Source: a virus
IMG/VR virus record: IMGVR_UViG_3300009514_000005
Coordinates: 1-64,000 of that record
Reading direction: 5' to 3' (one strand)
Length of the DNA stretch: 64,000 nucleotides
Below, piece by piece: positions 3,352-63,361 of the stretch. Positions within the stretch are counted from its first letter, which is position 1. Each line of letters starts with the position of its first letter. The position numbers and the translations under genes are program-made. The notes under the pieces are model-generated. The model had not been told where the DNA came from, ran no database searches, and saw nothing but the letters and a program-made list of their open reading frames with translations.

Positions 3352-3921
3352 CTAAGAAACACTTCTGGCAAAAACCTTAGCCACAGTCCTGGCCTCTTCA
3401 TGGTTTTTAATCTCGTAACCAACTCTTCTCATCTCTTGAGGAAGATCTTCAAAACCACTCATTCCCTCAGTGATCTTATCTCCTGGGGCCCAACCAAAGA
3501 TGGCCCGATGACTCCAGCCATACCATTTATCTTCAGACTCACAAAATCCAATAGAACAAACCGAATGATTTTTGTCAGCAAGCTCGGGCTGAATCCCACG
3601 CTTTTCCATGATCTCCTTGGCCTCGTCAGGGCCGCCAATGTATTCCCCTTTAAAAGTGTAGGCCGATTGTAATTCACAATCCTCAGTGCCAAAGGGCTCG
3701 CCATCTATAAGTTCTGTGCGGATCTCGTAGCCAGCCTTCTTCCTTCGCCTGGCCTTAATCTCTTTAATAGGAAGACTCTCGGTGATGGGACGATGATTCT
3801 TTTGGAATCCGTAACACATGAAGTCGTGAAACCAATTGCTTTCCCAAAGAGTTCTCCACTTGTCCAATTGATTGGAGCCCATGTTGTTGATCGCCTCTTC
3901 AAGTTTTTGCATTTGATTCAT
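3352..3921 (-). CDS. conserved phage hypothetical protein
   Basis: 189-aa ORF with CSIGF...KWYGWSHRAIFG motif that I recall from phage hypotheticals. Confidence 0.6.
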   Translation of the reverse strand: MNQMQKLEEAINNMGSNQLDKWRTLWESNWFHDFMCYGFQKNHRPITESLPIKEIKARRRKKAGYEIRTELIDGEPFGTEDCELQSAYTFKGEYIGGPDEAKEIMEKRGIQPELADKNHSVCSIGFCESEDKWYGWSHRAIFGWAPGDKITEGMSGFEDLPQEMRRVGYEIKNHEEARTVAKVFARSVS

Positions 3922-10155: not shown

Positions 10156-10175
10156 GTTGTTCTCCTTTTAAAAAA

Positions 10176-10296
10176 GGGACGGGCCGGATTGGTTACCGAC
10201 TGTCCAGTTACGGCTAGGGCCTCGGGTTCATGCCTGGCACAGTCACCGAGTATCCCAACACACGCATCTACCTGTCACGTCTCAGGCCGCCGTCCC
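10176..10296 (-). ncRNA. 121-nt tRNA-like structured RNA with expanded central domain
   Basis: Intergenic GC-rich island; 7-bp closing stem GGGACGG/CCGTCCC, D-like stem GCCTG/CAGGT, stem CTCGG/CCGAG, variable-arm-like CTAG/CTGG, T-like stem GTCGG/CCGGC; followed by T6. Confidence 0.65.
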
Positions 10297-14904: not shown

Positions 14905-15843
14905 ATAGTTTTACCTTATGGTTTGCCTCTTCACAGATCCAATCATCATGCTCGGTCCAATATCTGTAACAGGGATCTCCTCCGATCTGTATCTCAATAG
15001 TATGGATGGTTCCAATCAGGGCCCCCTCTTTTCTGCTGTCCCTGGGAAGATCAGTTCCCTCGTCTCGGTCAAAAACAATCTGGTCCCCTACTTTGAACTT
15101 GATTTTTTCCATTACCTTTTCAAAAGCTTTTCTATTTTCTTCAATCAATTGGCCCCCAAAATTTTGACTTTCCACAAAATCATTTATTGTTCATCTGCCT
15201 CAATGATGACAGCCCCCTCTTGTATGTATGGCTCAAAATGTACTGGCCCCTTCTTATTACAATTATACCCACCGTAGTCCCCGCCATGGAAATCCACCCT
15301 CGCCCAAACAGGGAGGTCACCATGCTTCTCCTTAAGAGAGTTTAAGTGCTCAACTAATTGAGATATTTTCCAAGTATCCATCAACTTCCCACCATGTTCC
15401 CAGCAGGTTCCCGGTGGGTTCCCGCTTCTTTCCACCGCATTCCAACGCTTTCCACCGGACTCCCGCCTCTTATCACTCCAATTGATTGGAGGCAATCTTC
15501 TCTTTACAATTTGTTTATTCATTCAGGCTTATACATATAATTTAACAAAAAGGCCCCAAAACTTGAAAAATATATGTATAAATTAAATACCTTAATGATT
15601 TCAAGTATTAGGGGTTTTTCTCCAATCCATCCTATACATACCTCAAGGCAGAACTAGGAAGTAATTATGAAGATGTTTGAATAAATATACCTGGGGAACC
15701 GTAGATATACATGGCTTTGCAGGGAAAATATTAACCAATTGGCCCCCTAAGAGGGAAAATGTTAACAATATTTGGCGGGCATTGAATGTTTTGTGATCAA
15801 TAAATAACAAAAAGTTTTTGTAGACTATTGATAACAAGAATTC

Positions 15844-16550: not shown

Positions 16551-16660
16551 GACACCAGCAAAGGAGGAAGCATTTCATCAATCGGGTTCCTTTAAATGCG
16601 TGGTCTCACTTATATAAGGGGGAAAAAGTGTGATTTGTTGCATTTTTTCGCACGAAAAAG

Positions 16661-16710
16661 TGATTACGCAAAAGTGTGTAACACCAAGATGATTACGCAA
16701 AAGTGTGTAA
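16661..16710. repeat. two identical 21-bp direct repeats TGATTACGCAAAAGTGTGTAA
   Basis: Copies at 16661..16681 and 16690..16710, intergenic. Confidence 0.85.
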
Positions 16711-16744: not shown

Positions 16745-19240
16745 CTAACGCCTCTTCTTTTTTTTGTTTTTCTTTTTTTGCTTCCTGGATTCCTTGCTCG
16801 ATTTCTTTTTAGACTTGGAAGTTCTTTTGGTGAGACCCTTTATGTAGCTGTTTCGTAATTGAGTGAGAGCATCCTGGGTTTCTTCATCCGACCATTTTTC
16901 TGATCTAGCATACTGCGTAATGAGAGCTTCTTCCATCATGTGATGAAATCCAATACTCATCATTTCACTTCTGGCAGCCTCAGCTTTTTTGGACGCTCTT
17001 CTTTGAGCAGAAGCCCCGGAGCACAATGGCTTTTGTTTTACAGGGTTTCCTTGAGGCCCACCAGCAGGGCCTTTCTTTTGGCTGTTACTCATTCAAAAAT
17101 TGTAAACCAGCGTCCAATTAATTGGAAACCTATCGACTACTTTTTCTTACGATGACAATCGTTACATATATCCATATCAATTTCCAACCAACTTAATTTT
17201 CGACCACAAGATGAACAATCTTCCTGGCACATCTCACAAACTCTAGGATGCCCTGGGGAATCAAGCAATTTGCCCCCATTCTCTGGGATAAGGTCTTCCA
17301 TTAATCCACAGCAAACACCACAAAACAAACCTTCCTGAACTCCTTCTGACATATCTCCCATATTCATTTCCCCTTATTGTTTCAGCCTCCCGCTATTATT
17401 AATCGACCATCCATTCGCTGGCGACATCTTCCACTGATTCATATTTCCTTGGGTCGAGAATACATGCCTCTCCCTTCCGGATAAAAACCGTCACATTCCC
17501 CATGAAATCTCTAACCAAATAACCAAACTGAAGAGACTGGCCATCAGGGCCCCTTTTAACGCTTTTAACGCAAGCCTTCTCTGGACACTTGTCATCAAAA
17601 AACTTGGTGAAAAATTCTATATCTATTTTATGTGGAACAAACTTCTTACCCATGATTTAAACCTTAATCCCGTTAAACTCTTTCTCAAATTGTTCATCTC
17701 GCTTACGCATCATGAACCCTATTTTCATTGTAATAGTTTGTTCACCATGCTTTTGCTTGAGATAATCATAGCAAGTCAAACAAAGACTTATGGGTTTCCG
17801 ATAGTTAGAAACAATCCCCAACTTAGAACAAGGTCGAACCTCAACGAATTTTTTAATCTGCGAACATGATAAACAAATACCTTTCATTTGTATTCAACCC
17901 TCGGACAAATCCTGTTCTTCACGGAAATGAAATAGTAAAGCACCAGCTCAACAAAAGATTTCTCATGCTTGTCCTGATCCCCACACTCAATATCAGCTCT
18001 GGCTACAGCGTACCTATGAGTTAAACGATCCTTCACATCACAACCAAAACAATAAAGGAAAGCAGCCGCTATGAAACACCAAGCAAATATCCCTATCCCA
18101 AACAACACGTTAATCTCTAGAAGCCCATACATAATCCAGGCCGCGAAATACATGATTGGTGCAATACCCAAACAGTAAATTAAAAAAGGAACCACTATGA
18201 AAAAAATAAAAGAAAAGAAAAGTAGCTTTCCCCAAAAGGTCCAGAAGTAAGTACAAAGACTCTTGGGCATATCACTATCCCAACCAGGACTCCCAAGTTT
18301 TTCTCCACACCAATACATCAACCTGTAATGCCAACTATTCTTTTTTATTGTTATCATTTGCCCTCCACAAATAACGAGTGATCACCAAACAACCCTTCAG
18401 TTACTCCATGCTTTTTCAAGGTTTCTAAAAACTTCCCCCCATGAAATTTAATCTCCAAATGAGACCGAGACCATATCCCGATAAGATCCAATTTAGTAAT
18501 CTTCGACCCTGGCCGATTAACAGAAGAACTCACTGAAAGATTCTCAGGTAAAAGCTCAATGTTATCTATTATTTCATGCAAGGCTTGTTTCATTTTCTTT
18601 TCAACGCCAGGCTGGAAATATTTGTGCATCATTCACCCCTCTCTGCTTAGCCATCTTTACTTAAACCCTTTGCGTATTTATCATACGACTTCCAACTTAG
18701 TTTAACCGTGGCCCCAGACATTGGACAAAAACTAGGAATCAAATGGTTGTCTGGATAATAATAATACTTCTTAATGTTCATATGATTTTTTTTGCACCGA
18801 GCATCCCTTGTTCCCTGGCCATAAGTAAAAGGCTCAGAGTAAGGACAGTTAGTGCAATCCGTTACCAACATTCTTATTCCTCGTAACCTAAAAAAATTCT
18901 GATTGCTTTTGTGGTTGGGCTCTTCTCATCCCATTCTTCAGCGGCCCACTCTAGATAATGATTTGGAACATCTTCGATGGTCTCCCCAGCATATTTTCCA
19001 AAGGGGACCTTTAACTTACCGGCTTCCTCTTTCGTCATTTTCAACCTCTTCAACGATTACTCTAAACAACCTGGGCTTGGTTTTGGCCCCGATGATCCCT
19101 TCTTCTTTGTCATACTTAATAGTTTTCTTCATCTCATTAATAGACTTATGGAGAGAGGAAGGCTCAACATTATAATGCATCAACGTATGATTAAGAGACT
19201 CATTTCTAATTTGATACCCATAACCGAGAACCTTTCTCAT
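16745..19240 (-). other. block of hypothetical CDS (16745..17092 basic, 17137..17367 Cys-rich, 17399..17653, 17657..17887, 17884..18357 membrane, 18354..18632, 18647..18871, 19016..19240)
   Basis: Co-oriented packing; 17884..18357 has two long hydrophobic segments. Confidence 0.6.
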
Positions 19241-25282: not shown

Positions 25283-25284
25283 TC

Positions 25285-25447
25285 AAATATCCAACCAATA
25301 TCCAATTTCTAGCATTAACTTATAGCAAATTTCTTAGATTGATTCATGTGTTTACAATAACTTACAAATCAAAAACCCCATTTTTTCGCATTAACTACTA
25401 GCAATTCTCTGCACTAACTACTAGTAAATATCCAGCCAATATCCAAT
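25285..25447. repeat. 22-bp direct repeat pair plus 14-bp repeat pair in an AT-rich intergenic region
   Basis: AAATATCCA(A/G)CCAATATCCAAT at 25285..25306 and 25426..25447; GCA(T/C)TAACTACTAG at 25388..25401 and 25411..25424. Confidence 0.8.
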
Positions 25448-25647
25448 CAATTGGACTTTTGACACTCCCCACAAGACCGGGATAATCCATTGGTTAAATT
25501 CCTCACGTTGACCCACTTCTGCATCCCACACTCACATACGCAAAGCCAATGAATGTGCTGACTTTTCTTAGCGTATTTTCTTTTCCACTCACCCATCACT
25601 GTCCACTCCCCAAACTTCTTCCCCGTTAGATCCAATCTTTTTGGCAT
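25447..25647 (-). CDS. stand-alone Zn-binding module of the type found N-terminal in phage HNH/AP2 homing endonucleases
   Basis: DLTGKKFGEWTV...WLCVCECG...NLTNG.SRSCG; no nuclease domain follows. Confidence 0.75.
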   Translation of the reverse strand: MPKRLDLTGKKFGEWTVMGEWKRKYAKKSQHIHWLCVCECGMQKWVNVRNLTNGLSRSCGECQKSN

Positions 25648-29661: not shown

Positions 29662-30529
29662 CCTTCACTCCAATAAAATCCTCAAGACTGATCGGACCAT
29701 TCTTATCAGCAAACATGGTATGACCAATCTCTTTTTCCTTTTCAACATACTGCTTAAAAACATTGGGATTTTCTTTTGCAGAGACCCTAAGATCACTCTT
29801 CTTTGCCATGATACAAAACATACAACTTAATCGACTCATCCCTTTTGCATAGGCCCAATGTAATCTTTGACCAGCATCCTCGACAACACCGAGAAGATCT
29901 TCCAGCGAATAATTAAAAATAGGATACCAATCATAAACAAATCTTTTTCCATTAGGCTTGCTAAGATTATTAACCCTTTTAACTCTCCCTTTTTTATCCA
30001 GCTTTCCTTCTGGATGATTCATTTTTTCAAACAAAGCAAGACGTTTGCTAAGACCAATAGTGAGGGCTTCGCCAGTTTTCTTGAAGTGATCTTTATCAAC
30101 ACCTTGCTTTCGGCCATCAGATTCACCGGCTCTGATTCCAACACAGTTCACGGCATACTTAGCACCACGCTCTTTCATGATTGCACGAATGAGAACATCG
30201 ATTGGGCCAGTCTTTTGGCCGGAAGTACACTGACGGTACTTGGGCGATGGCCACATCCCACGCTTGGTAACCATCTCCATAAAGGTTTCATTGGCCACGA
30301 CAACCCTAAGATCGTGATCGCCAACAGTTGCCTTAATGTGATCAAAGGTTCCAGACCAGTCTGCCCCTGGAAGATCAGCATGAACCACGACGATCTGACT
30401 CTTGGGAACGATCCTTTCGATCTCGATCATCTGGGCTTGGGAGTCCTTGCCTCCTGAATGACTCACAAAAAATATGGCCCCTAAGTCTATCAATTTTTTT
30501 ACTTCATCCAGATTTACTAAGCCCCTCAT
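29639..30529 (-). CDS. PAPS-reductase-family (PP-loop) protein
   Basis: VSHSGGKDSQA, CTSGQKTGPI, GIRAGESDGR, RLSCMFCI. Confidence 0.85.
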   Translation of the reverse strand: MRGLVNLDEVKKLIDLGAIFFVSHSGGKDSQAQMIEIERIVPKSQIVVVHADLPGADWSGTFDHIKATVGDHDLRVVVANETFMEMVTKRGMWPSPKYRQCTSGQKTGPIDVLIRAIMKERGAKYAVNCVGIRAGESDGRKQGVDKDHFKKTGEALTIGLSKRLALFEKMNHPEGKLDKKGRVKRVNNLSKPNGKRFVYDWYPIFNYSLEDLLGVVEDAGQRLHWAYAKGMSRLSCMFCIMAKKSDLRVSAKENPNVFKQYVEKEKEIGHTMFADKNGPISLEDFIGVKVDETFEI

Positions 30530-36152: not shown

Positions 36153-37488
36153 AAACTTCCCATCCTTTTGCTTTGTATTTGTTTCGCCTCGAGTTAGCCA
36201 AGATCATTGCGTCTGGAGACTGAGAATCAACCAAATCTAAAACAATTGGCTGTTTCTTCCCTTCCAACAACCTCAGGATTCTACCTACTGGCTGCTCAAT
36301 CGCTTGAGAAGGAGAAGCGAAAATAAGAGTATCGAGGCGCTCAACGTTAAATCCAACTCCAACCAATTGGGTAGTGGCACAAATAACCTTGGCCTTTACC
36401 CCCTCTTCTCTTTCCTGCTTATTTCTTTTACCCGTTAAAAGACCGACAGTGATTCCGGTCCCATCTAGCCTATTCAAAAGTTCATAATAAATATCCTCTA
36501 TATGACCAACCCTCTCAGATAGAATCAAAATGTTTCTACCAGCTTTAGCCGCCTTAACTGATTGCCTGTAAATGATTTCATTTCTAGTGCTAGACTTAAC
36601 CATGGATTTCAAAATCCAATTCTTTTTCCTATCAAGGCTTGCGGTGCTATTCGATGTCCATGTAAAACCAGTATCCACAAAATAAATCTTTGGCTCTAAT
36701 ATCTTTACTGTGTTCATCCCGGAAACAACCGGACCAACATTATACTTAAAAACATCTTCAGCGTTATCTGCTCTCTTTAAAGTACCTGAGAGCCCCAAAA
36801 TATATCGAGCGCCAAAACGGGGAACTGCTTTGGAAAACTCTGGAGCCCCCAGGAGATGACATTCATCACAAATGATGAGGCCAAATTCTTCAAAAACCCA
36901 AGGTGAATAATATTTTTGTGAAAGACTCTGAACCATTCCTATACAAATGTCGTTACCCTTTATCTCCATCTTGTCAGCAAAGAGTCTTCCGTATTTCCAG
37001 GTTGGAAGGAATTTTTTAATACCATCCTCAATCCATTGATCAAGTAAAACAGAAGTATGAACAATAACTAAAGTTTTAACATTTAATCTTCTAGCTATTT
37101 CTAAAGATAAAAAAGTCTTGCCTCCGCCTGTTTTGACTTCAGCAATAGCGCCACCAAAATGGTTCTCCTTCATTGCTTCAATACATTTAACAATGATCTC
37201 TTCCTGACCTTCTCTTGGACAGCAAACTGCATTGGCAGAAGAAACATCGCTGCTTGAAAAACAAGGTGCGAACTCCCCTTCAACATGATTGCGAAGATAA
37301 GTAACGTAGTAACCACGAGGAACGCCAACCCAATCACCCTCTTCCGCCCAAAGATGAATTGGTTCAATTTTTTCCTGAAACGAAGTAGTCTTCCTCGGGA
37401 TGATAGTGAGATCTTGTTTGATCTTCTCACGCATTCCAAAGCCTACAGCGTTACGCTTAAAGCGCACATATCCTCGTGGTATTGGCAT
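36073..37488 (-). CDS. SF2 DEAH helicase (UvsW/XPB-like)
   Basis: KTGGGKT, IICDECH, LSGT, VGFNVERLD, Q.VGRILR. Confidence 0.9.
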   Translation of the reverse strand: MPIPRGYVRFKRNAVGFGMREKIKQDLTIIPRKTTSFQEKIEPIHLWAEEGDWVGVPRGYYVTYLRNHVEGEFAPCFSSSDVSSANAVCCPREGQEEIIVKCIEAMKENHFGGAIAEVKTGGGKTFLSLEIARRLNVKTLVIVHTSVLLDQWIEDGIKKFLPTWKYGRLFADKMEIKGNDICIGMVQSLSQKYYSPWVFEEFGLIICDECHLLGAPEFSKAVPRFGARYILGLSGTLKRADNAEDVFKYNVGPVVSGMNTVKILEPKIYFVDTGFTWTSNSTASLDRKKNWILKSMVKSSTRNEIIYRQSVKAAKAGRNILILSERVGHIEDIYYELLNRLDGTGITVGLLTGKRNKQEREEGVKAKVICATTQLVGVGFNVERLDTLIFASPSQAIEQPVGRILRLLEGKKQPIVLDLVDSQSPDAMILANSRRNKYKAKGWEVFGEQVFEDFDEYKRTKKRGRLHYGIS

Positions 37489-43942: not shown

Positions 43943-44569
43943 TCAATCAAACTTTATACAGATTCCTTTGCGAACAATATAAGACATCATGTTAGACATA
44001 ACTTTTTCTAATTCATCCATGTCCAAATGAGAGGCAAAAATAGTTGGCTTCAGGTTGTCATATCTTTTTCTAAGAATCTGATCCAAATAATGATTACAGA
44101 ATTTTGTATCAGCCCCAACATCATATAATCCTAAACATCTAACCGAACTCAAATGTTCAATCGCTGACCTATCATCTATCTCTGAAGTTGATTCAACCCA
44201 TGTCCTTAAATTCAAAACTGAAATACAAAAAGATGTATAGCGATGACGCTGGAAAAATTTCAACAAAATAGCCATTGCGGTTTCAGCCATAGCCATATCT
44301 TCTTTGTTCACCAATAAAAGACTCTTCTCCATATAGCCATCGGCATTTTTCCATCTATCAACAAATATTTTTAACTTGGGTAAAATATCCTCAGGAATAT
44401 CAGAACGCTGAACATCCCAAAGTCTCTTAGGAAGGTTCATGTCCCGATAAATCGAAGGACCAAGTTTGATCTTTAAAGTTCCTCCATCGGTAACTTCGTA
44501 GACCTTCGATGTGTATCCAGACTCTTCGAGGATTCTTTTTTGGATTTCCTTATCGACTCCAGGGTCCAT
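43943..44569 (-). CDS. DnaC/IstB-like helicase loader with degenerate Walker A
   Basis: LPKRLW, SLLLV, LGLYDVG, ILRKRYDNLKPTIFASHL; between initiator and dnaB; AAGGAGG before ATG 44569. Confidence 0.65.
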   Translation of the reverse strand: MDPGVDKEIQKRILEESGYTSKVYEVTDGGTLKIKLGPSIYRDMNLPKRLWDVQRSDIPEDILPKLKIFVDRWKNADGYMEKSLLLVNKEDMAMAETAMAILLKFFQRHRYTSFCISVLNLRTWVESTSEIDDRSAIEHLSSVRCLGLYDVGADTKFCNHYLDQILRKRYDNLKPTIFASHLDMDELEKVMSNMMSYIVRKGICIKFD

Positions 44570-45858
44570 CGTCCCTCCTTTATTTTTTTGCATGTCGCGT
44601 ACCTCCACTCTACAGTCATCTCATCAAATCGGGGATCCTCTGAAAGAGCCCTCCCAGACGGAACAAACTCATCCCAATGATCACGAAGAAACTCCCAGTT
44701 CTCGACGATATATGTCATAAGCTCTTTGGCCTGTTCAAGCCCAAGATCACCAATCATGCCTTTGGCATCCTTCGTCTGGCTGGATCTGATCTCATTGTGG
44801 CAGCTATACCCAGATTTCCTCATGACCTCGGAAAACGCCTTGTAAAGCTTCTTTGCCTTGTGGGATATGTTCTGGTCTATCCCAGGGCCCTTTCTCTTCT
44901 TAGGCGAAGAGCTAGCCATCTCCTTGTCCCGCTCCTTCTTTCGTTGGTAAGCTCTTTTGTCGGCTTCCCGTTTTTTCTCTTTCTGAGCTTCATACCAATC
45001 GTCAGGCCCCTTTTTGGGTTTGGCGTATTTCTTCTTGTCGAAAGGCAATAGCTCTTCATTGGCGTTACCATCATCATGGACATGTCCACCTAACCCCATG
45101 ATTACTTTATGACTAGCCTTGCTATCATCATCTTGCGTCATTTTTTCGCGGCCCCCGGCGTTATACCTATCGCATTGTGTCGTCTTCTGACCCGTCACAG
45201 CATCATTGTACACCATGTCGTAATCAATGCCCCTTGTCAGGTTACAGTACATTGTGTCGTAATGATTCCTCTTGTCATTATAGTACAGTACGTCATCATA
45301 GTACGTTGCGTCGTAATGATTCCCCTTGTCACATTCTTTTACGACACTTTGTGTTAACCTGTTTTTACACAGGGGGTCACTTAGTCTTGTTAAATGAGTA
45401 TTATTAACCTTAGTCTTATTAGTGTTCATTTTTTGAACTACCTGGTGTTCATTTATTGAACTAGGGGTAGTGCAATTATTGAACTCCATCATGTACCCCC
45501 CCTGCGTTATCAGTTCATTTTTTGAACCTACTCCATTATTTGGAGAGACATCGTCCCAAAGAGGTTTAGGCGTAGCGTTAAGCATCCATGATTCTGGCCC
45601 TAAGCACTCGTAATTATTAGACTTTCCGCAGTCATTTCGCCTTACATCAACTAAGCCCTTAATGGTTAATTCTTTCAAAACTTTAGCTATAGTTGCCCTG
45701 CTTTTAAGTCCACTTAGCTCCATTAGCTTTTTATAACTAGGAAAAGCCGGATTAAAATGAGCCAAAACACAGTAAACCCGAAAAGCAGATGGAGAAATGT
45801 TCTCTCCAGCCCTAATAAGGTCGTTTGGGATCATGGTAAAATTCTTATTTTTCTTCAA
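44473..45858 (-). CDS. replication initiator protein (N-terminal winged helix, lambda-O-like arrangement)
   Basis: FTMIPN..I....SPSAFRVYCVL....AFPSY..L...SG....TI...LKEL..KG wHTH; upstream of loader, helicase and primase; internal repeats. Confidence 0.75.
   Translation of the reverse strand: MKKNKNFTMIPNDLIRAGENISPSAFRVYCVLAHFNPAFPSYKKLMELSGLKSRATIAKVLKELTIKGLVDVRRNDCGKSNNYECLGPESWMLNATPKPLWDDVSPNNGVGSKNELITQGGYMMEFNNCTTPSSINEHQVVQKMNTNKTKVNNTHLTRLSDPLCKNRLTQSVVKECDKGNHYDATYYDDVLYYNDKRNHYDTMYCNLTRGIDYDMVYNDAVTGQKTTQCDRYNAGGREKMTQDDDSKASHKVIMGLGGHVHDDGNANEELLPFDKKKYAKPKKGPDDWYEAQKEKKREADKRAYQRKKERDKEMASSSPKKRKGPGIDQNISHKAKKLYKAFSEVMRKSGYSCHNEIRSSQTKDAKGMIGDLGLEQAKELMTYIVENWEFLRDHWDEFVPSGRALSEDPRFDEMTVEWRYATCKKIKEGRWTLESIRKSKKESSKSLDTHRRSTKLPMEEL
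45173..45331. repeat. iteron-like imperfect direct repeats inside the initiator gene (candidate origin)
   Basis: TGTCGTAATCAATGCCCCTTGTCA 45216, TGTCGTAATGATTCCTCTTGTCA 45255, CGTCGTAATGATTCCCCTTGTCA 45309, degenerate copy 45178; AT-rich stretch near 45390-45460. Confidence 0.6.
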
Positions 45859-45891
45859 AACAACTCCTTTTGTATGTGGGGAATCGGCAAA

Positions 45892-46254
45892 TCAAGAACC
45901 TGAACTCACAAGACAAAGATGGCCTTTGGCAATCAAAGGGACTTCATGCGATGCACCAATGCTAAACTTCCAAGATTCTTGGCCAAGACAAAAATAAGAA
46001 TTTGGGGATTCGAAAGAATCACCTTGCTCTATTTTAATCAAACCCTTGCTAGCCAGTTCTTTTAGAGTCTTAGAAATAGTCGTGTCACTTTTGACGCCAC
46101 TAAGTATCCTGAAATCCTCATAAGCAATAAAGGCATGTTCAGATCTCAAAATGATTGCATAAAAAAGAAAAGCCCGAGGAGAAAGCTCTGCTTCATCAAG
46201 AACCTCTGCTGGAATCATTAACAAACCATCTTTAACCATATCAGCTCCAATCAA
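45892..46254 (-). CDS. stand-alone winged-helix paralog of the initiator N-terminal domain
   Basis: MIP...SP.AF..Y......AF..Y.....SG.KS..TI.K.LKEL..KGL.....S.N.Y.CLG.ESW shared with the 44473..45858 N-terminus. Confidence 0.8.
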   Translation of the reverse strand: MIGADMVKDGLLMIPAEVLDEAELSPRAFLFYAIILRSEHAFIAYEDFRILSGVKSDTTISKTLKELASKGLIKIEQGDSFESPNSYFCLGQESWKFSIGASHEVPLIAKGHLCLVSSGS

Positions 46255-46260
46255 TTGGAC

Positions 46261-46332
46261 AAAAAAGGGACGCCCTCCCTTGTTATGTGGAAATTATGCT
46301 GATCTCCATAAGACCAAGAAGAAAGGCGTCCC
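46261..46332 (-). terminator. long-hairpin intrinsic terminator / attenuator
   Basis: GGGACGCC/GGCGTCCC basal stem, extended upper stem, T6 tract, immediately upstream of the wHTH gene. Confidence 0.7.
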
Positions 46333-46356
46333 AGGTGACTCCCTAAGGAGGCAACT

Positions 46357-46395
46357 CTAAAATATAAAACTTTTCCAGAAATCGAAGATCAGCAT
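46357..46395 (-). CDS. candidate leaderless leader peptide MLIFDFWKSFIF
   Basis: TTGCCA (46430..46425)-N17 with TG-AACCAT (46407..46402), ATG 6 nt later; first 12 nt complementary to the downstream hairpin. Confidence 0.4.
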   Translation of the reverse strand: MLIFDFWKSFIF

Positions 46396-46488
46396 GGAGG
46401 AATGGTTTCACTAGCTGAATTGGCTGGCAAGTGCTTTGTTAAGACACCCAGTACAAGAAGTACATTACTATTTGTAATTTAACGGATA

Positions 46489-47376
46489 TTAATATTTACT
46501 CATTACGCAATGACCATGAGACATCTTATACTCTTTAAGCTCCTCATCAGTCATATAACCATATTTAGCAACCGCTTCATTAAGTTTTTCTGGCAAAAAT
46601 TTACGACCCCAAACTCCAAGGTTTTTATTTCCCTTATCCTCATTGGCTTTTAATTTGTTTTCTTCTATTCGAACCCAATCTTGATAGTCTTCCGGATGAA
46701 ACCTATAGAGCCAAAGTAATTCAATCTCGTTCATAAATGGACAAAGAATACAATTTGATGGAACCGGAACTTGGTTACCAGTTGAAGAAATATATTCCTG
46801 GCATCCTTTTCTGTCTAAACCAAGATCCACCAGTGGATAAATATGATTAATGGATTTTTTTCTCCACTTCATGGAATCCTTAGATGGATCTGCCATTCTT
46901 TTTTCTTCTCCAGAGGCAATACCAATCATCATTTTAATTTTTCCATACCGCTCTGCAAATCGAAGAAAGGCTTTCTTTCTTCCTTTGTCAACTCCATATT
47001 TCTTATGAAGCCAATCCTCTAAAAATTTATAGATAGGTTGAATCTTAAGTTTATCAGTGCAGGTTTTAGGGAAAGCTTTGGATCCAACAGTATTTTTAAG
47101 ATTATAAAAACCTCTCAACGACTGCCAAGAATCATAATGATATCCCATGTCACTGGTAAGGTGAACAAACTCAATTTTGTTTTTACCGCAAAATTTTTTA
47201 ATATTTTCAACATGACTATAAGTGTCCCGATGTTCATCACCAGTATCAGACATAATTACCAAAAAATCATTTGGAGCATATTTAGATCGGAACCCCTGAT
47301 CGTAAACATATTTGTAAAGGAGAGTAGTTGAATCCTGCCCTCCTCCAAATGATAAAATCGTTAACTGATCACTCAT
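46489..47376 (-). CDS. second PAPS-reductase-family (PP-loop) protein
   Basis: ILSFGGGQDST, CTDKLKIQPI, GIASGEEKR, YPLVD, SNCILCP. Confidence 0.8.
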   Translation of the reverse strand: MSDQLTILSFGGGQDSTTLLYKYVYDQGFRSKYAPNDFLVIMSDTGDEHRDTYSHVENIKKFCGKNKIEFVHLTSDMGYHYDSWQSLRGFYNLKNTVGSKAFPKTCTDKLKIQPIYKFLEDWLHKKYGVDKGRKKAFLRFAERYGKIKMMIGIASGEEKRMADPSKDSMKWRKKSINHIYPLVDLGLDRKGCQEYISSTGNQVPVPSNCILCPFMNEIELLWLYRFHPEDYQDWVRIEENKLKANEDKGNKNLGVWGRKFLPEKLNEAVAKYGYMTDEELKEYKMSHGHCVMSKY

Positions 47377-47393
47377 AACTTTTCCCCATGCCC

Positions 47394-48959
47394 TTATTTT
47401 TTAGGGGAGTTAACATAATGAAGTTCGCTCTTGGCTCTCGTGATAGCCACATAAATCAAATTATCCTCTTGGTTTTTCTGCCAATTCTGAACGGCATATT
47501 TCGAAGGAAGAAGCCAGCGATCCAAGAAGAAAACCCTTATACACTCTAAGCCTTTTGACTTATGAACAGTGGAAAGGTTTACCAAGTTTTGGCTTAGGAC
47601 CGCTCCGTTTCTCACCTCTTCTTTTTGGAAAAGATTCTCAATTGATTTGATTAATTCCGAAACAGAGTTTGCTCCACTCATCTCAATAAAAATTTCTACA
47701 ACCTCAACTCTATCTTCAATTCTGGAAACATCAGCTTTAGGACTTTTTTCAAGAAGTCTTTCGATCTCTCTTTCCTTCCAATTATCAAGTTTCTCAGTGA
47801 GCTTAACAAGATTCTTAGCCTTCATTCTTTCAATGAGAGAAACAATTCCCTTGGCCAAATCTCTACCAAGAATGGTGGCTGGTACTCGATCACCAATTAA
47901 TCTATAGGCCAATCGAATAAGAGGAGCCGTATTCCTACAAACAACCAGATCACCCTTGCGAAACATATCAGTTTGATATTCTCCACGATCCTCAACATGA
48001 CCCTCAGGAGCCCCATCAAAAGCTTCGATATGATCAACCACCTCTTGAGCTTCCTCTACAATTTTTTGTGGACATCGATAAGAAGTCGAAAGAGGAAGTC
48101 TCTTACAGTTAAAAGTTTTAACGATATTTTCCATAGAATCAGAATCAGCTCCTCTAAATCCATAGATAGCCTGACAAGGATCCCCAACAGCAACAAGCCT
48201 TCCATTTCTTTTTAAAGTTTTCGCAATAAGAGATCTTTGAATTTTGGAAACATCCTGGGCTTCATCAACGAAAACAAAATCATTGGTGAACATAGGAATA
48301 TTAAAAATAACTGGAAGGTAAAGCTGATCATCAAAATCAATCATTTCATCACGCTTTTCGATTCCAACCTTGAGAAGAATCCTGGCCATCTCAACCATTT
48401 TTTCACGATCTTTTCCTGGATCAAATTCCTCTTCGGTATCAGATTCAAATTTACTTCCACCTTCATTGGGCTGAATATCATAACGATCAATCAGATCATC
48501 CCAAACTGAATCCTCATCCTTAGTGAGAGCGTTTAAATCCATCCCGCTAGGAACGATTCCGATACCTTTTGCAAGCCCAACAAGCTTAACCGCTGCGGAT
48601 CCCAATCTCTCAATGGTTCTTTCGGTATAGTCTGGGGAGATATAATCATTGAAAAGTTTCCAAGTCTTCTGAGTCTCAAGATTAGGCCGACCATCAACAT
48701 ATCTTGCCCAAGCACCGTGACCAAGACCATTCAAAGTCTTTGCGATAACATGACCCGGAACACGATCACTCAATTCATTGGCGATGCTTTTATTAAAAGC
48801 CAAAAAGATCACCCTTTTATTTTGAGGAATTAATTCCAAAGCCTTAATAATAGTTGTTGTCTTTCCGGATCCTGCAACTGCCTCCACGACAGCAGATCCC
48901 TCACCGTTTTTAATAAACTCAAAAACCGCTTCCTGATACTTGCTTGGTTTAAAACTCAT
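47394..48959 (-). CDS. UvrD/Rep-like SF1 helicase
   Basis: AVAGSGKTTT, FVDEAQD, VGDPCQAIYGFRGAD, SYRCP, STVHKSKGLE, YVAITRAK. Confidence 0.92.
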   Translation of the reverse strand: MSFKPSKYQEAVFEFIKNGEGSAVVEAVAGSGKTTTIIKALELIPQNKRVIFLAFNKSIANELSDRVPGHVIAKTLNGLGHGAWARYVDGRPNLETQKTWKLFNDYISPDYTERTIERLGSAAVKLVGLAKGIGIVPSGMDLNALTKDEDSVWDDLIDRYDIQPNEGGSKFESDTEEEFDPGKDREKMVEMARILLKVGIEKRDEMIDFDDQLYLPVIFNIPMFTNDFVFVDEAQDVSKIQRSLIAKTLKRNGRLVAVGDPCQAIYGFRGADSDSMENIVKTFNCKRLPLSTSYRCPQKIVEEAQEVVDHIEAFDGAPEGHVEDRGEYQTDMFRKGDLVVCRNTAPLIRLAYRLIGDRVPATILGRDLAKGIVSLIERMKAKNLVKLTEKLDNWKEREIERLLEKSPKADVSRIEDRVEVVEIFIEMSGANSVSELIKSIENLFQKEEVRNGAVLSQNLVNLSTVHKSKGLECIRVFFLDRWLLPSKYAVQNWQKNQEDNLIYVAITRAKSELHYVNSPKK

Positions 48960-48996: not shown

Positions 48997-49047
48997 ATTA
49001 TCAGGTATATTCATCTAAATGTAAAGATAATTTCTTGACAAAACGTA
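48997..49047. promoter_or_regulatory. conserved promoter cassette, copy 1
   Basis: Minus: TTTACA-N17-GATAAT; plus-strand TTGACA at 49035; 41/51 identical to 57762..57812. Confidence 0.75.
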
Positions 49048-57077: not shown

Positions 57078-57755
57078 TTAGTCTAATCCTTTAACTAGTT
57101 TGATTGGATCCCCGCCACACTCTTTAACCAACTCCATAGCTCGATAAAATTCTTTTACTTCGATCATGTAAACATCTTCTTTTTTGGCCGAATAACAACC
57201 ATGATAATTAGATCCAAAAAAATCTATCCATCCAGCATGATTCCTGTTCTCACCAGGGATGTGGTATCCAAACTGGCCTTTGAAATATTGTTTTCCAGAT
57301 GTATAAAAATTCCTTTTAAGAATTACGATTTTCATCTAAGCCTCCTCATTAAAAGCTTCTTCCCAGGGCCCATAGTGCCTATACCGTTGCATCCAATAAC
57401 TGGTTTCACCCATGTCGAACTGAACGCTCATCCCAGGAGCGATTCCAAATTTCTGATAAAAGTCTTGAATACTCATATCGATGATCACTTTATTATTAGT
57501 GTCAGCGATTTTGGCTCGGCCATTAATCTCAAGCCAGGCGAGTTGAAAGTGAGTGTTTGAAAAACCATGGGCAAGGCGACAAGTCCTATCGTTCCAATGG
57601 TATTTGTTTTTCATCATGAAGTGGATCTGCCAAGTGAACTGAGGCCGGGCATAGCCTTCAGGAACCGCTTCCCATTTTTTGGCCCAAGGGAAAAGCTTTT
57701 TCCAAGCCCTGACCCCGATTCCTACTTTTGGACATTTCTTCAGTTTCCTTTTCAT
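57078..57755 (-). other. two hypothetical CDS (57078..57335, 57336..57755)
   Basis: First genes behind the 57.8 kb promoter. Confidence 0.6.
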
Positions 57756-60621: not shown

Positions 60622-60656
60622 AAAAAAAGCTCCTAAAGGTATAACCTATAAGGAGC
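60622..60656 (-). terminator. intrinsic terminator whose 3' arm contains the rfbB SD
   Basis: GCTCCT...AGGAGC stem then T7 directly followed by ATG 60621. Confidence 0.7.
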
Positions 60657-63331: not shown

Positions 63332-63361
63332 AAAAAAAGAGCCTAGCATAAAACTAGGCCC
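63332..63361 (-). terminator. intrinsic terminator
   Basis: GCCTAG-TTTTATG-CTAGGC followed by TC and T7. Confidence 0.75.

Follow-up and report, generated by a model that had tools for sequence, protein, structure and literature searches.

In phage lambda, the terminator tR1 precedes cII-O-P and is subject to N-mediated antitermination. The E. coli trp, pheA, and pheST operons have leader-peptide transcription attenuators, and among plasmids the control of rep genes involves a repY-repZ pseudoknot (IncIalpha/IncB), tap-repA (R1), or attenuation (pT181). In mycobacteria, leaderless polycysteine sORF attenuators have been described, which contain runs of Cys codons and act on a duplex that conceals the ribosome-binding site (RBS) of the following gene (Canestrari et al., bioRxiv 10.1101/834739). 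The spacer considered here, which lies ahead of the replication genes of a phage, resembles each of these in part.

The window analysed is the first 64 kb of an IMG/VR virus record of 134,619 bp (~90% complete, 40% GC), that of a 135-kb phage with almost all of its genes on the minus strand. The spacer is 249 nt long (46488-46240, minus strand) and separates two gene blocks. Upstream it is adjoined by a PAPS-reductase-like gene (46489-47376, minus), which is preceded by a gene for a UvrD-like helicase; 3′ of it comes a replication module encoding a wHTH protein, an O-like initiator, a DnaC-like loader, DnaB, and primase. An earlier note on this DNA had placed the wHTH and initiator genes downstream of a hairpin, and this context is borne out, with the helicase and PAPS-reductase-like genes on the upstream side. 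The wHTH protein (115 aa; gene at 45892-46239, minus) is paralogous to the N-terminal part of the initiator (44% identity over 84 aa, E = 2e-19). The initiator itself (HTH_36, O-like; 44473-45858, minus) has a TTG start behind AAGGAG, and the same short N-terminal extension ahead of “MIP” as the wHTH protein. The wHTH start can be fixed at 46239, since three lines agree on it: the spacing of its Shine-Dalgarno (SD) sequence, a GGAG 5 nt 5′ of the start; the paralogy with the initiator; and the database gene call, also of 115 aa.

A strong and conserved sigma70-type early promoter, CTTTACA-N16-TGATAAT, is found at 48997-49026 (minus), and drives the uvrD-like and PAPS-reductase-like genes toward the spacer. 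The cassette to which it belongs recurs at 57791-57762, and a related cassette is found at 30590-30562. From this promoter down to the spacer, the same strand is free of terminators.

Within the spacer is a 66-nt hairpin (46267-46332, minus), composed of a 12-bp GC-rich base, a 4-bp middle section, and a 7-bp apical stem, with a T6 tract (46261-46266, minus) directly on its 3′ side. The closing stem, given as 8 bp by a repeat tool, is GGGACGCC/GGCGTCCC; with this GC clamp of 8 bp inside the 12-bp base stem, followed by T6, the structure has the form of an intrinsic terminator. Its calculated energy is -30.2 to -31.4 kcal/mol (z = -6.35; 0/200 shuffles as stable). A genome-wide scan of the coding strand found about six clean intergenic terminators, and this hairpin with its T6 is the most stable one found in the phage genome: the other compact terminators have energies from -11 to -21 kcal/mol, and the lower 16 bp of the 66-nt hairpin alone (-22.8 kcal/mol) exceed every one of them. 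A small hairpin (46333-46356, minus; core CUCC-UUAG-GGAG) comes first, so that the order given in the earlier note, a small hairpin and then a 66-nt hairpin with T6 before the wHTH gene, is as described. If the large hairpin is opened, a residual 6-bp hairpin, AAGGGA-GGGCG-TCCCTT and then T4 (46265-46281, minus; -7.5 kcal/mol), survives. From the end of the T-tract to the wHTH start codon is 21 nt, a gap filled by a palindromic motif with the RBS: TCCAATTGATTGGAG at 46245-46259 (minus), whose GGAG (46248-46245) is the wHTH SD sequence.

At 10177, 60629, and 63339, too, a terminator directly adjoins the RBS of the gene that follows; having terminators within operons seems to be a habit of this phage. 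The compact terminators at 60629-60656 and 63339-63361 (minus) have T-tracts that run into the next SD sequence or ATG, and the one at 60629 contains AGGAG in its 3′ stem strand. At 10174-10296 (minus), a GC-rich structure of 123 nt, with GGGACGG/CCCGTCCC plus T6 closing it, abuts the SD sequence of the next gene, and has CGTCCCTTTTTT in common with the 66-nt terminator (closing stem GGGACG/CGTCCC-T6). Rfam contains no match to it, and it was rejected as an exceptional fold, being no stabler than its shuffles (z = -0.65). In and next to the studied spacer itself, two nested, imperfect inverted repeats link 46218-46246 with 46413-46442 (11 nt at 91% and 11 nt at 82%); in transcripts from upstream, this pairing could join a candidate -35 region (discussed below) to the wHTH start region.

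On the 3′ side of the terminator the only promoter-like site is TTGTCC-N16-TGaTATGGT. The -10 of this site (TATGGT) covers the wHTH start codon, which is fixed by SD and paralogy, and the site was therefore rejected as a wHTH promoter. Because there is a strong terminator, no usable promoter found behind it, and a strong promoter upstream, a read-through valve is the simplest reading: an attenuating terminator before the replication module, possibly tuned by a competing helix in cis. We hold this reading with moderate confidence. The wHTH, initiator, loader, DnaB, and primase genes would then be transcribed only by polymerases reading through the terminator, having started at the 49.0-kb early promoter, and perhaps also within the spacer, at a weak promoter with an extended -10. 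The terminator would set or delay replication-gene expression relative to that of the early auxiliary genes, as tR1 does in lambda, and the palindromic motif over the wHTH RBS would be a likely second, protein-mediated control point.

The layout is of the lambda type, with a promoter (49026-48997), two genes, the terminator, and the replication module all on one strand. As with tR1, the terminator lies between an early promoter and the initiator and loader genes, and the genes beyond it are reached (here presumably) by read-through. Unlike in lambda, no nut- or put-like element was identified in an Rfam search of the spacer (E ≤ 10); nor was an N- or Q-like protein noticed in passing; and the hairpin here is a strong Rho-independent terminator, with a possible competing helix in cis.

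Upstream of the hairpins is a weak promoter-like site, TTGCCA-N17(TG)-AACCAT (46402-46430, minus; 8/12 plus an extended -10), made up of TTGCCA at 46430-46425, TG at 46410-46409, and AACCAT at 46407-46402. An ATG at the predicted +1 (46395) follows the -10 after 6 nt (offset 7); both the site and the ATG had been proposed before, and both are found. The site was omitted by a consensus scan because its -10 matches at only 3/6 positions, and it is unlike the conserved promoter cassette of the phage. The whole genome, with both strands counted, has 13 sites with at least 5/6 in the -35 plus the TG. Promoter-like sites of the loose class occur at 9 per kb per strand, and the consensus scan over 2 kb returned 8 where 5.0 were expected. 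A plus-strand antisense RNA gene, raised as a possibility in the earlier note, was not convincing: the promoter-like site GTGACT-N17-TAAAAT (46335-46363, plus; 9/12) is at chance level, and no plus-strand terminator comes after it.

The arrangement of a -10, 6 nt, and an ATG recurs at three probable gene starts (57755, 17092, and 16484). In these (57762-57755, 17099-17092, and 16491-16484) the -10 sequences are GATAAT, TACAAT, and TATAAT, each with the 7-nt offset and without an SD sequence. The start at 57755 is that of the first gene behind the strongest promoter of the phage, a 139-codon ORF lacking an SD sequence. This suggests that the phage has leaderless mRNAs, including that of this first gene; the corresponding test of offsets is weak (2 at offset 7, against 0-2 at control offsets). 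Also in this part of the genome, a tandem direct repeat of 21-22 nt, TTACACACTTTTGCGTAATCA, is present in two copies in the spacer at 16600-16700 (minus), upstream of a terminator and a leaderless-looking gene.

The ATG at 46395 opens an ORF of 12 codons, MLIFDFWKSFIF, ending in TAG at 46359-46357 (46357-46395, minus), and with four Phe codons as previously claimed. These are at positions 4, 6, 10, and 12, dispersed rather than in tandem; at least four Phe are found in 4 of the 585 ORFs of 10-14 codons in this genome. Lacking an SD sequence, and with its ATG 7 nt behind the -10, the ORF could be initiated only in a leaderless mode. The stop codon (46357) is separated from the wHTH start (46239) by 117 nt and the terminator, and nothing connects Phe with the genes downstream (wHTH, initiator, loader, DnaB, and primase). 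Pairing of the short ORF with the wHTH RBS was considered as a means of control and discarded: the duplex is at the shuffle mean in energy (998/2000 shuffles as good), with a pair probability of 0.03-0.04.

The first 12 nt from this ATG (ATGCTGATCTTC, 46384-46395, minus) are complementary to the 5′ strand of the apical stem and the loop of the terminator hairpin (GGAGATCAGCAT, 46296-46307, minus), a pairing that had been claimed from inspection of the sequence and holds up. The helix (46395-46384/46307-46296) has 10 contiguous Watson-Crick pairs followed by one G-U and one G-C, making 12; a repeat tool finds the same as a 10-nt perfect inverted repeat (46395-46386/46305-46296). Its edge falls on the ATG, where the +1 is predicted as well. 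In dinucleotide shuffles of the upstream 156 nt, a 10-nt Watson-Crick run was obtained in 4/1000 and a 12-nt run with one G-U in 1/1000; by duplex energy, 16/2000 shuffles were as good. Pairs of real genomic windows (66 nt with the 156 nt upstream) are a stricter control than shuffles, and 6/400 of these (1.5%) reach 10 nt. Five other clean terminators have complements of only 4-6 nt. The complementarity is above chance at about the 1% level, which is suggestive and, with about six terminators per genome, not decisive.

Whether such a helix could oppose termination may depend on when it forms. Folds were calculated with ViennaRNA, which treats nested structures only, so that coexistence of the two helices as a pseudoknot is outside the model. 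At equilibrium, in a leader of 133-135 nt, the terminator base has a probability of 0.96-0.99 and the alternative 0.01-0.04. Forcing the helix between 5′ end and loop costs 2.7 kcal/mol in nested folds (-38.1 vs. -40.8 kcal/mol), and the resulting alternative retains the small 6-bp hairpin with U4. In these calculations the helix cannot act as an antiterminator at equilibrium. It covers the apical stem and loop and not the terminator strand beside the U-tract, and the lower 16 bp remain free, a topology compatible with a pseudoknot; the helix is not an antiterminator of the trp/pheA kind, which excludes the terminator by taking up its 5′ stem strand.

Folds of successively longer prefixes give a different picture: between nt 100 and nt 124 the helix forms with a probability of ~1.0, and it gives way to the terminator only when nt 129 has emerged. 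A nascent RNA has its last dozen or so nucleotides inside the polymerase; allowing for these, the helix would be in place as the polymerase reaches the U-tract. Since it would remove the apical hairpin that normally nucleates folding, an effect on the rate of termination is plausible, with the helix slowing closure of the terminator. In the read-through valve preferred here, pairing of 46395-46384 with the apical part before the hairpin is complete would thus probably lower termination efficiency kinetically. The complementarity could be due to chance, its background being 1.5% in real sequence with about six terminators per genome.

The earlier note had inferred that ribosome occupancy of the short ORF toggles termination. 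On this model, transcription would begin at the A of the ATG at 46395, and a 70S ribosome on the leaderless ORF would stall at Phe codons 4 and 6; stalled when Phe-tRNA is short, it would mask nt 1-12 so that the terminator folds, and a free 5′ end would give read-through. In a related form, the 5′ end (the first 12 nt, with the AUG) would serve as a sensor of ribosome occupancy, a kinetic attenuator coupling replication to host translation. We consider both the Phe-stalling scheme and the sensor quite unlikely. Of the attenuator as first proposed, a strong terminator in the leader and a complement above chance remain; the lower stem of the terminator is untouched by the helix. The geometry of -10, 6 nt, and ATG is that of the three probable leaderless starts, but the enrichment of this geometry is statistically weak, and the -10, at 3/6, belongs to a site not conserved with the promoter class of the phage. 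The complementarity begins exactly at the predicted +1, and the helix dominates the co-transcriptional prefix folds; however, long transcripts from the 49.0-kb promoter hold the same segment with no means to translate it. Four Phe in 12 codons are rare (4/585), but the codons are dispersed and the regulated genes unrelated to Phe. The likeness to trp, pheA, and pheST is in having, ahead of a terminator, a short ORF in which one amino acid recurs, and an alternative pairing that is near-isoenergetic in nested folds (-38.1 vs. -40.8 kcal/mol); unlike in these, the antiterminator has no overlap with the base stem, the Phe codons are not in tandem, the ORF has no SD sequence (the geometry being leaderless), and the genes are for replication, not for Phe biosynthesis or charging. 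Leaderless sORF attenuators are known in mycobacteria (bioRxiv 10.1101/834739), which speaks for such a mechanism: here too a leaderless short ORF would be the first cistron, and ribosome position is proposed to remodel downstream RNA. Unlike in that type, pairing of the short ORF with the RBS is at chance level, and the target would be a terminator. With plasmid rep control the locus has in common that a replication initiator is preceded by a short ORF and by RNA pairing over a long range and, with pT181, that the rep leader contains a terminator; leader-peptide control of the IncB/IncI/R1 type is not found, as 117 nt and a terminator preclude translational coupling and no convincing antisense RNA gene is present. 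No relatives that could give covariation were found, and any control of the 5′/loop helix by ribosomes or phenylalanine is hypothetical.

Chance alone would suffice if the hairpin were a plain, leaky operon-end terminator of the uvrD/PAPS-reductase transcript, the promoter-like site, mini-ORF, and complement all being accidental. The background for a 10-nt complement (1.5% per terminator), the commonness of promoter-like sites of such quality (9 per kb per strand; 8 vs. 5 expected), and an equilibrium heavily favoring the terminator are in keeping with this. It would nevertheless need three independent coincidences at one nucleotide, namely the TG-extended site, the complement's edge, and an ATG at +1; the other five terminators have complements of at most 6 nt, and the whole spacer folds better than its shuffles (z = -3.0). 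We consider it unlikely. The same elements could make up a stand-alone sRNA gene, whose RNA of ~133 nt (46395 to ~46263) would have its 5′ end lodged in the apical loop, in a pseudoknot or as a protected end, perhaps encode a 12-aa peptide, and leave only read-through to the replication genes. The architecture is that of a classical sRNA gene (promoter-like site, short structured transcript, strong terminator), and the lower stem and the 5′/loop helix are topologically compatible; but the promoter is weak, there is no match to an Rfam family, and no second copy or conserved target was found, a 13-nt match at 30382 being within chance expectation, so that an sRNA gene seems very doubtful. Finally, polymerases might enter behind the terminator. 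A phage-specific, non-sigma70 promoter there is possible and would count against the read-through valve; no sigma factor was found when one was looked for in the phage, but the palindromic motif in that position is otherwise unexplained. In the extreme case the terminator would be a full insulator, and the replication module would have its own unrecognised promoter or activator, for example the TCCAATTGATTGGAG palindrome. The motif has 7 of its 16 copies within -60 to +30 of start codons (p = 0.002), a variant at 17114 overlaps the -35 of a good promoter, and at 15478 the motif's own TTGATT is a -35. No consistent -10 or spacing is found 3′ of the copies, however; a transcript starting after 46259-46245 would lose the very SD sequence that the motif supplies; and, again, no phage sigma factor was detected. 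Full insulation therefore strikes us as highly improbable.

Comparison with relatives is limited by their scarcity. No DNA relatives were found among 50,697 phage records, and neither the initiator nor the wHTH protein has a homologue among 5.8 billion proteins besides the two themselves, which therefore appear to be an orphan replication initiator pair. Relatives sought via the initiator, DnaB, and wHTH gave no close loci. The PAPS-reductase-like protein has many relatives at ≤70% identity, none of them syntenic with a replication module, and no relatives carrying this leader were found in the searches made. Two distant relatives (G001, described below, and G125; DnaB identity 26-30%) have no such spacer before their initiator genes, which counts against the read-through valve. 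In G001, the initiator-like gene (~36804-36870, minus) has TGcTATACT, 6 nt, and ATG, once more a leaderless geometry, with no spacer and no terminator. The spacer was blank in Rfam, both in an E-value search of 45000-48000 (E ≤ 10) and at the gathering threshold over the whole window. An origin of the spacer as a gene remnant or repeat was rejected: its other matches in the genome are only 13-14 nt, at chance level, including CATGCTGATCTTC at 30382.

The motif overlapping the wHTH RBS is one of 16 copies of a near-palindrome, (C)TCCAATTGATTGGA(G), in the phage genome. The 12-nt palindrome core has 13 exact copies (0.016 expected), to which three variants, each a perfect palindrome, can be added; in the window alone there are 17 matches with at most one mismatch, vs. 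0.9 expected. Besides that at 46245-46259, the copies in the window are at 3864, 15478, 17114, 25443, 31592, 52041, 54277, and 61040, and those in the rest of the genome at 85734, 94939, 106488, 119123, 121362, 128647, and 132036. They are enriched at gene starts, as given above, and several supply a GGAG, in either orientation. One copy is within 25283-25588, a 306-nt spacer upstream of a methyltransferase-like gene that also has several direct repeats: two of GGATATTGG(C/T)TGGATATTT and three CTAGTAGTTA(G/A)TGC-like units. This may be a regulatory or origin-like region.

Short sequences of this kind have precedents. Cluster K mycobacteriophages have start-associated sequences (SAS), many copies of which lie just 5′ of starts and contain the SD sequence, and in plasmid RK2 the KorB operators (OB) are scattered palindromic sites of a global regulator. 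As with SAS and KorB sites, one short conserved sequence is present in some 10-20 copies per genome; the motif here differs from them in being a near-palindrome that occurs in both orientations and also inside genes. G001, a 102-kb IMG/VR phage (IMGVR_UViG_3300049811_000251), has 22 exact copies, one of them (36542) within the wHTH-coding part of its initiator-like gene. It shares only nine proteins with the present phage, at ~25% identity, a single 58-residue match reaching 45%. The motif does not follow the lineage of the phage's ParB-like protein: closer relatives by that protein have no copy in 20-kb loci, and a ParB/parS pairing was rejected on the grounds that these relatives (44% identity) lack the motif. 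In two Patescibacteria MAGs it is found as a longer intergenic palindrome beside housekeeping genes. It is not a general feature of Patescibacteria, as most matches at the order level are in-frame coding for PIDW and not intergenic, and a literature search for the 12-mer returned only unrelated primers. The palindrome looks like a candidate operator or binding site for a dimeric protein, possibly host-related.

Two large phages with barely any kinship, together with a few Patescibacteria genomes, share an exact palindrome of 12-16 bp that is often joined to an RBS, and a host factor or regulator common to them may lie behind it. As for the spacer, a read-through valve, if that is what it is, would make this one more phage that delays or limits its replication genes by a terminator behind an early operon, which would not be surprising, and would aid the transcription map of an uncultured 135-kb phage. 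The competing 5′ helix would be of more consequence: if the first bases of the transcript do act as a kinetic antiterminator, perhaps one that is read by ribosomes on a leaderless mini-ORF, attenuation would be extended to the replication module of a phage.
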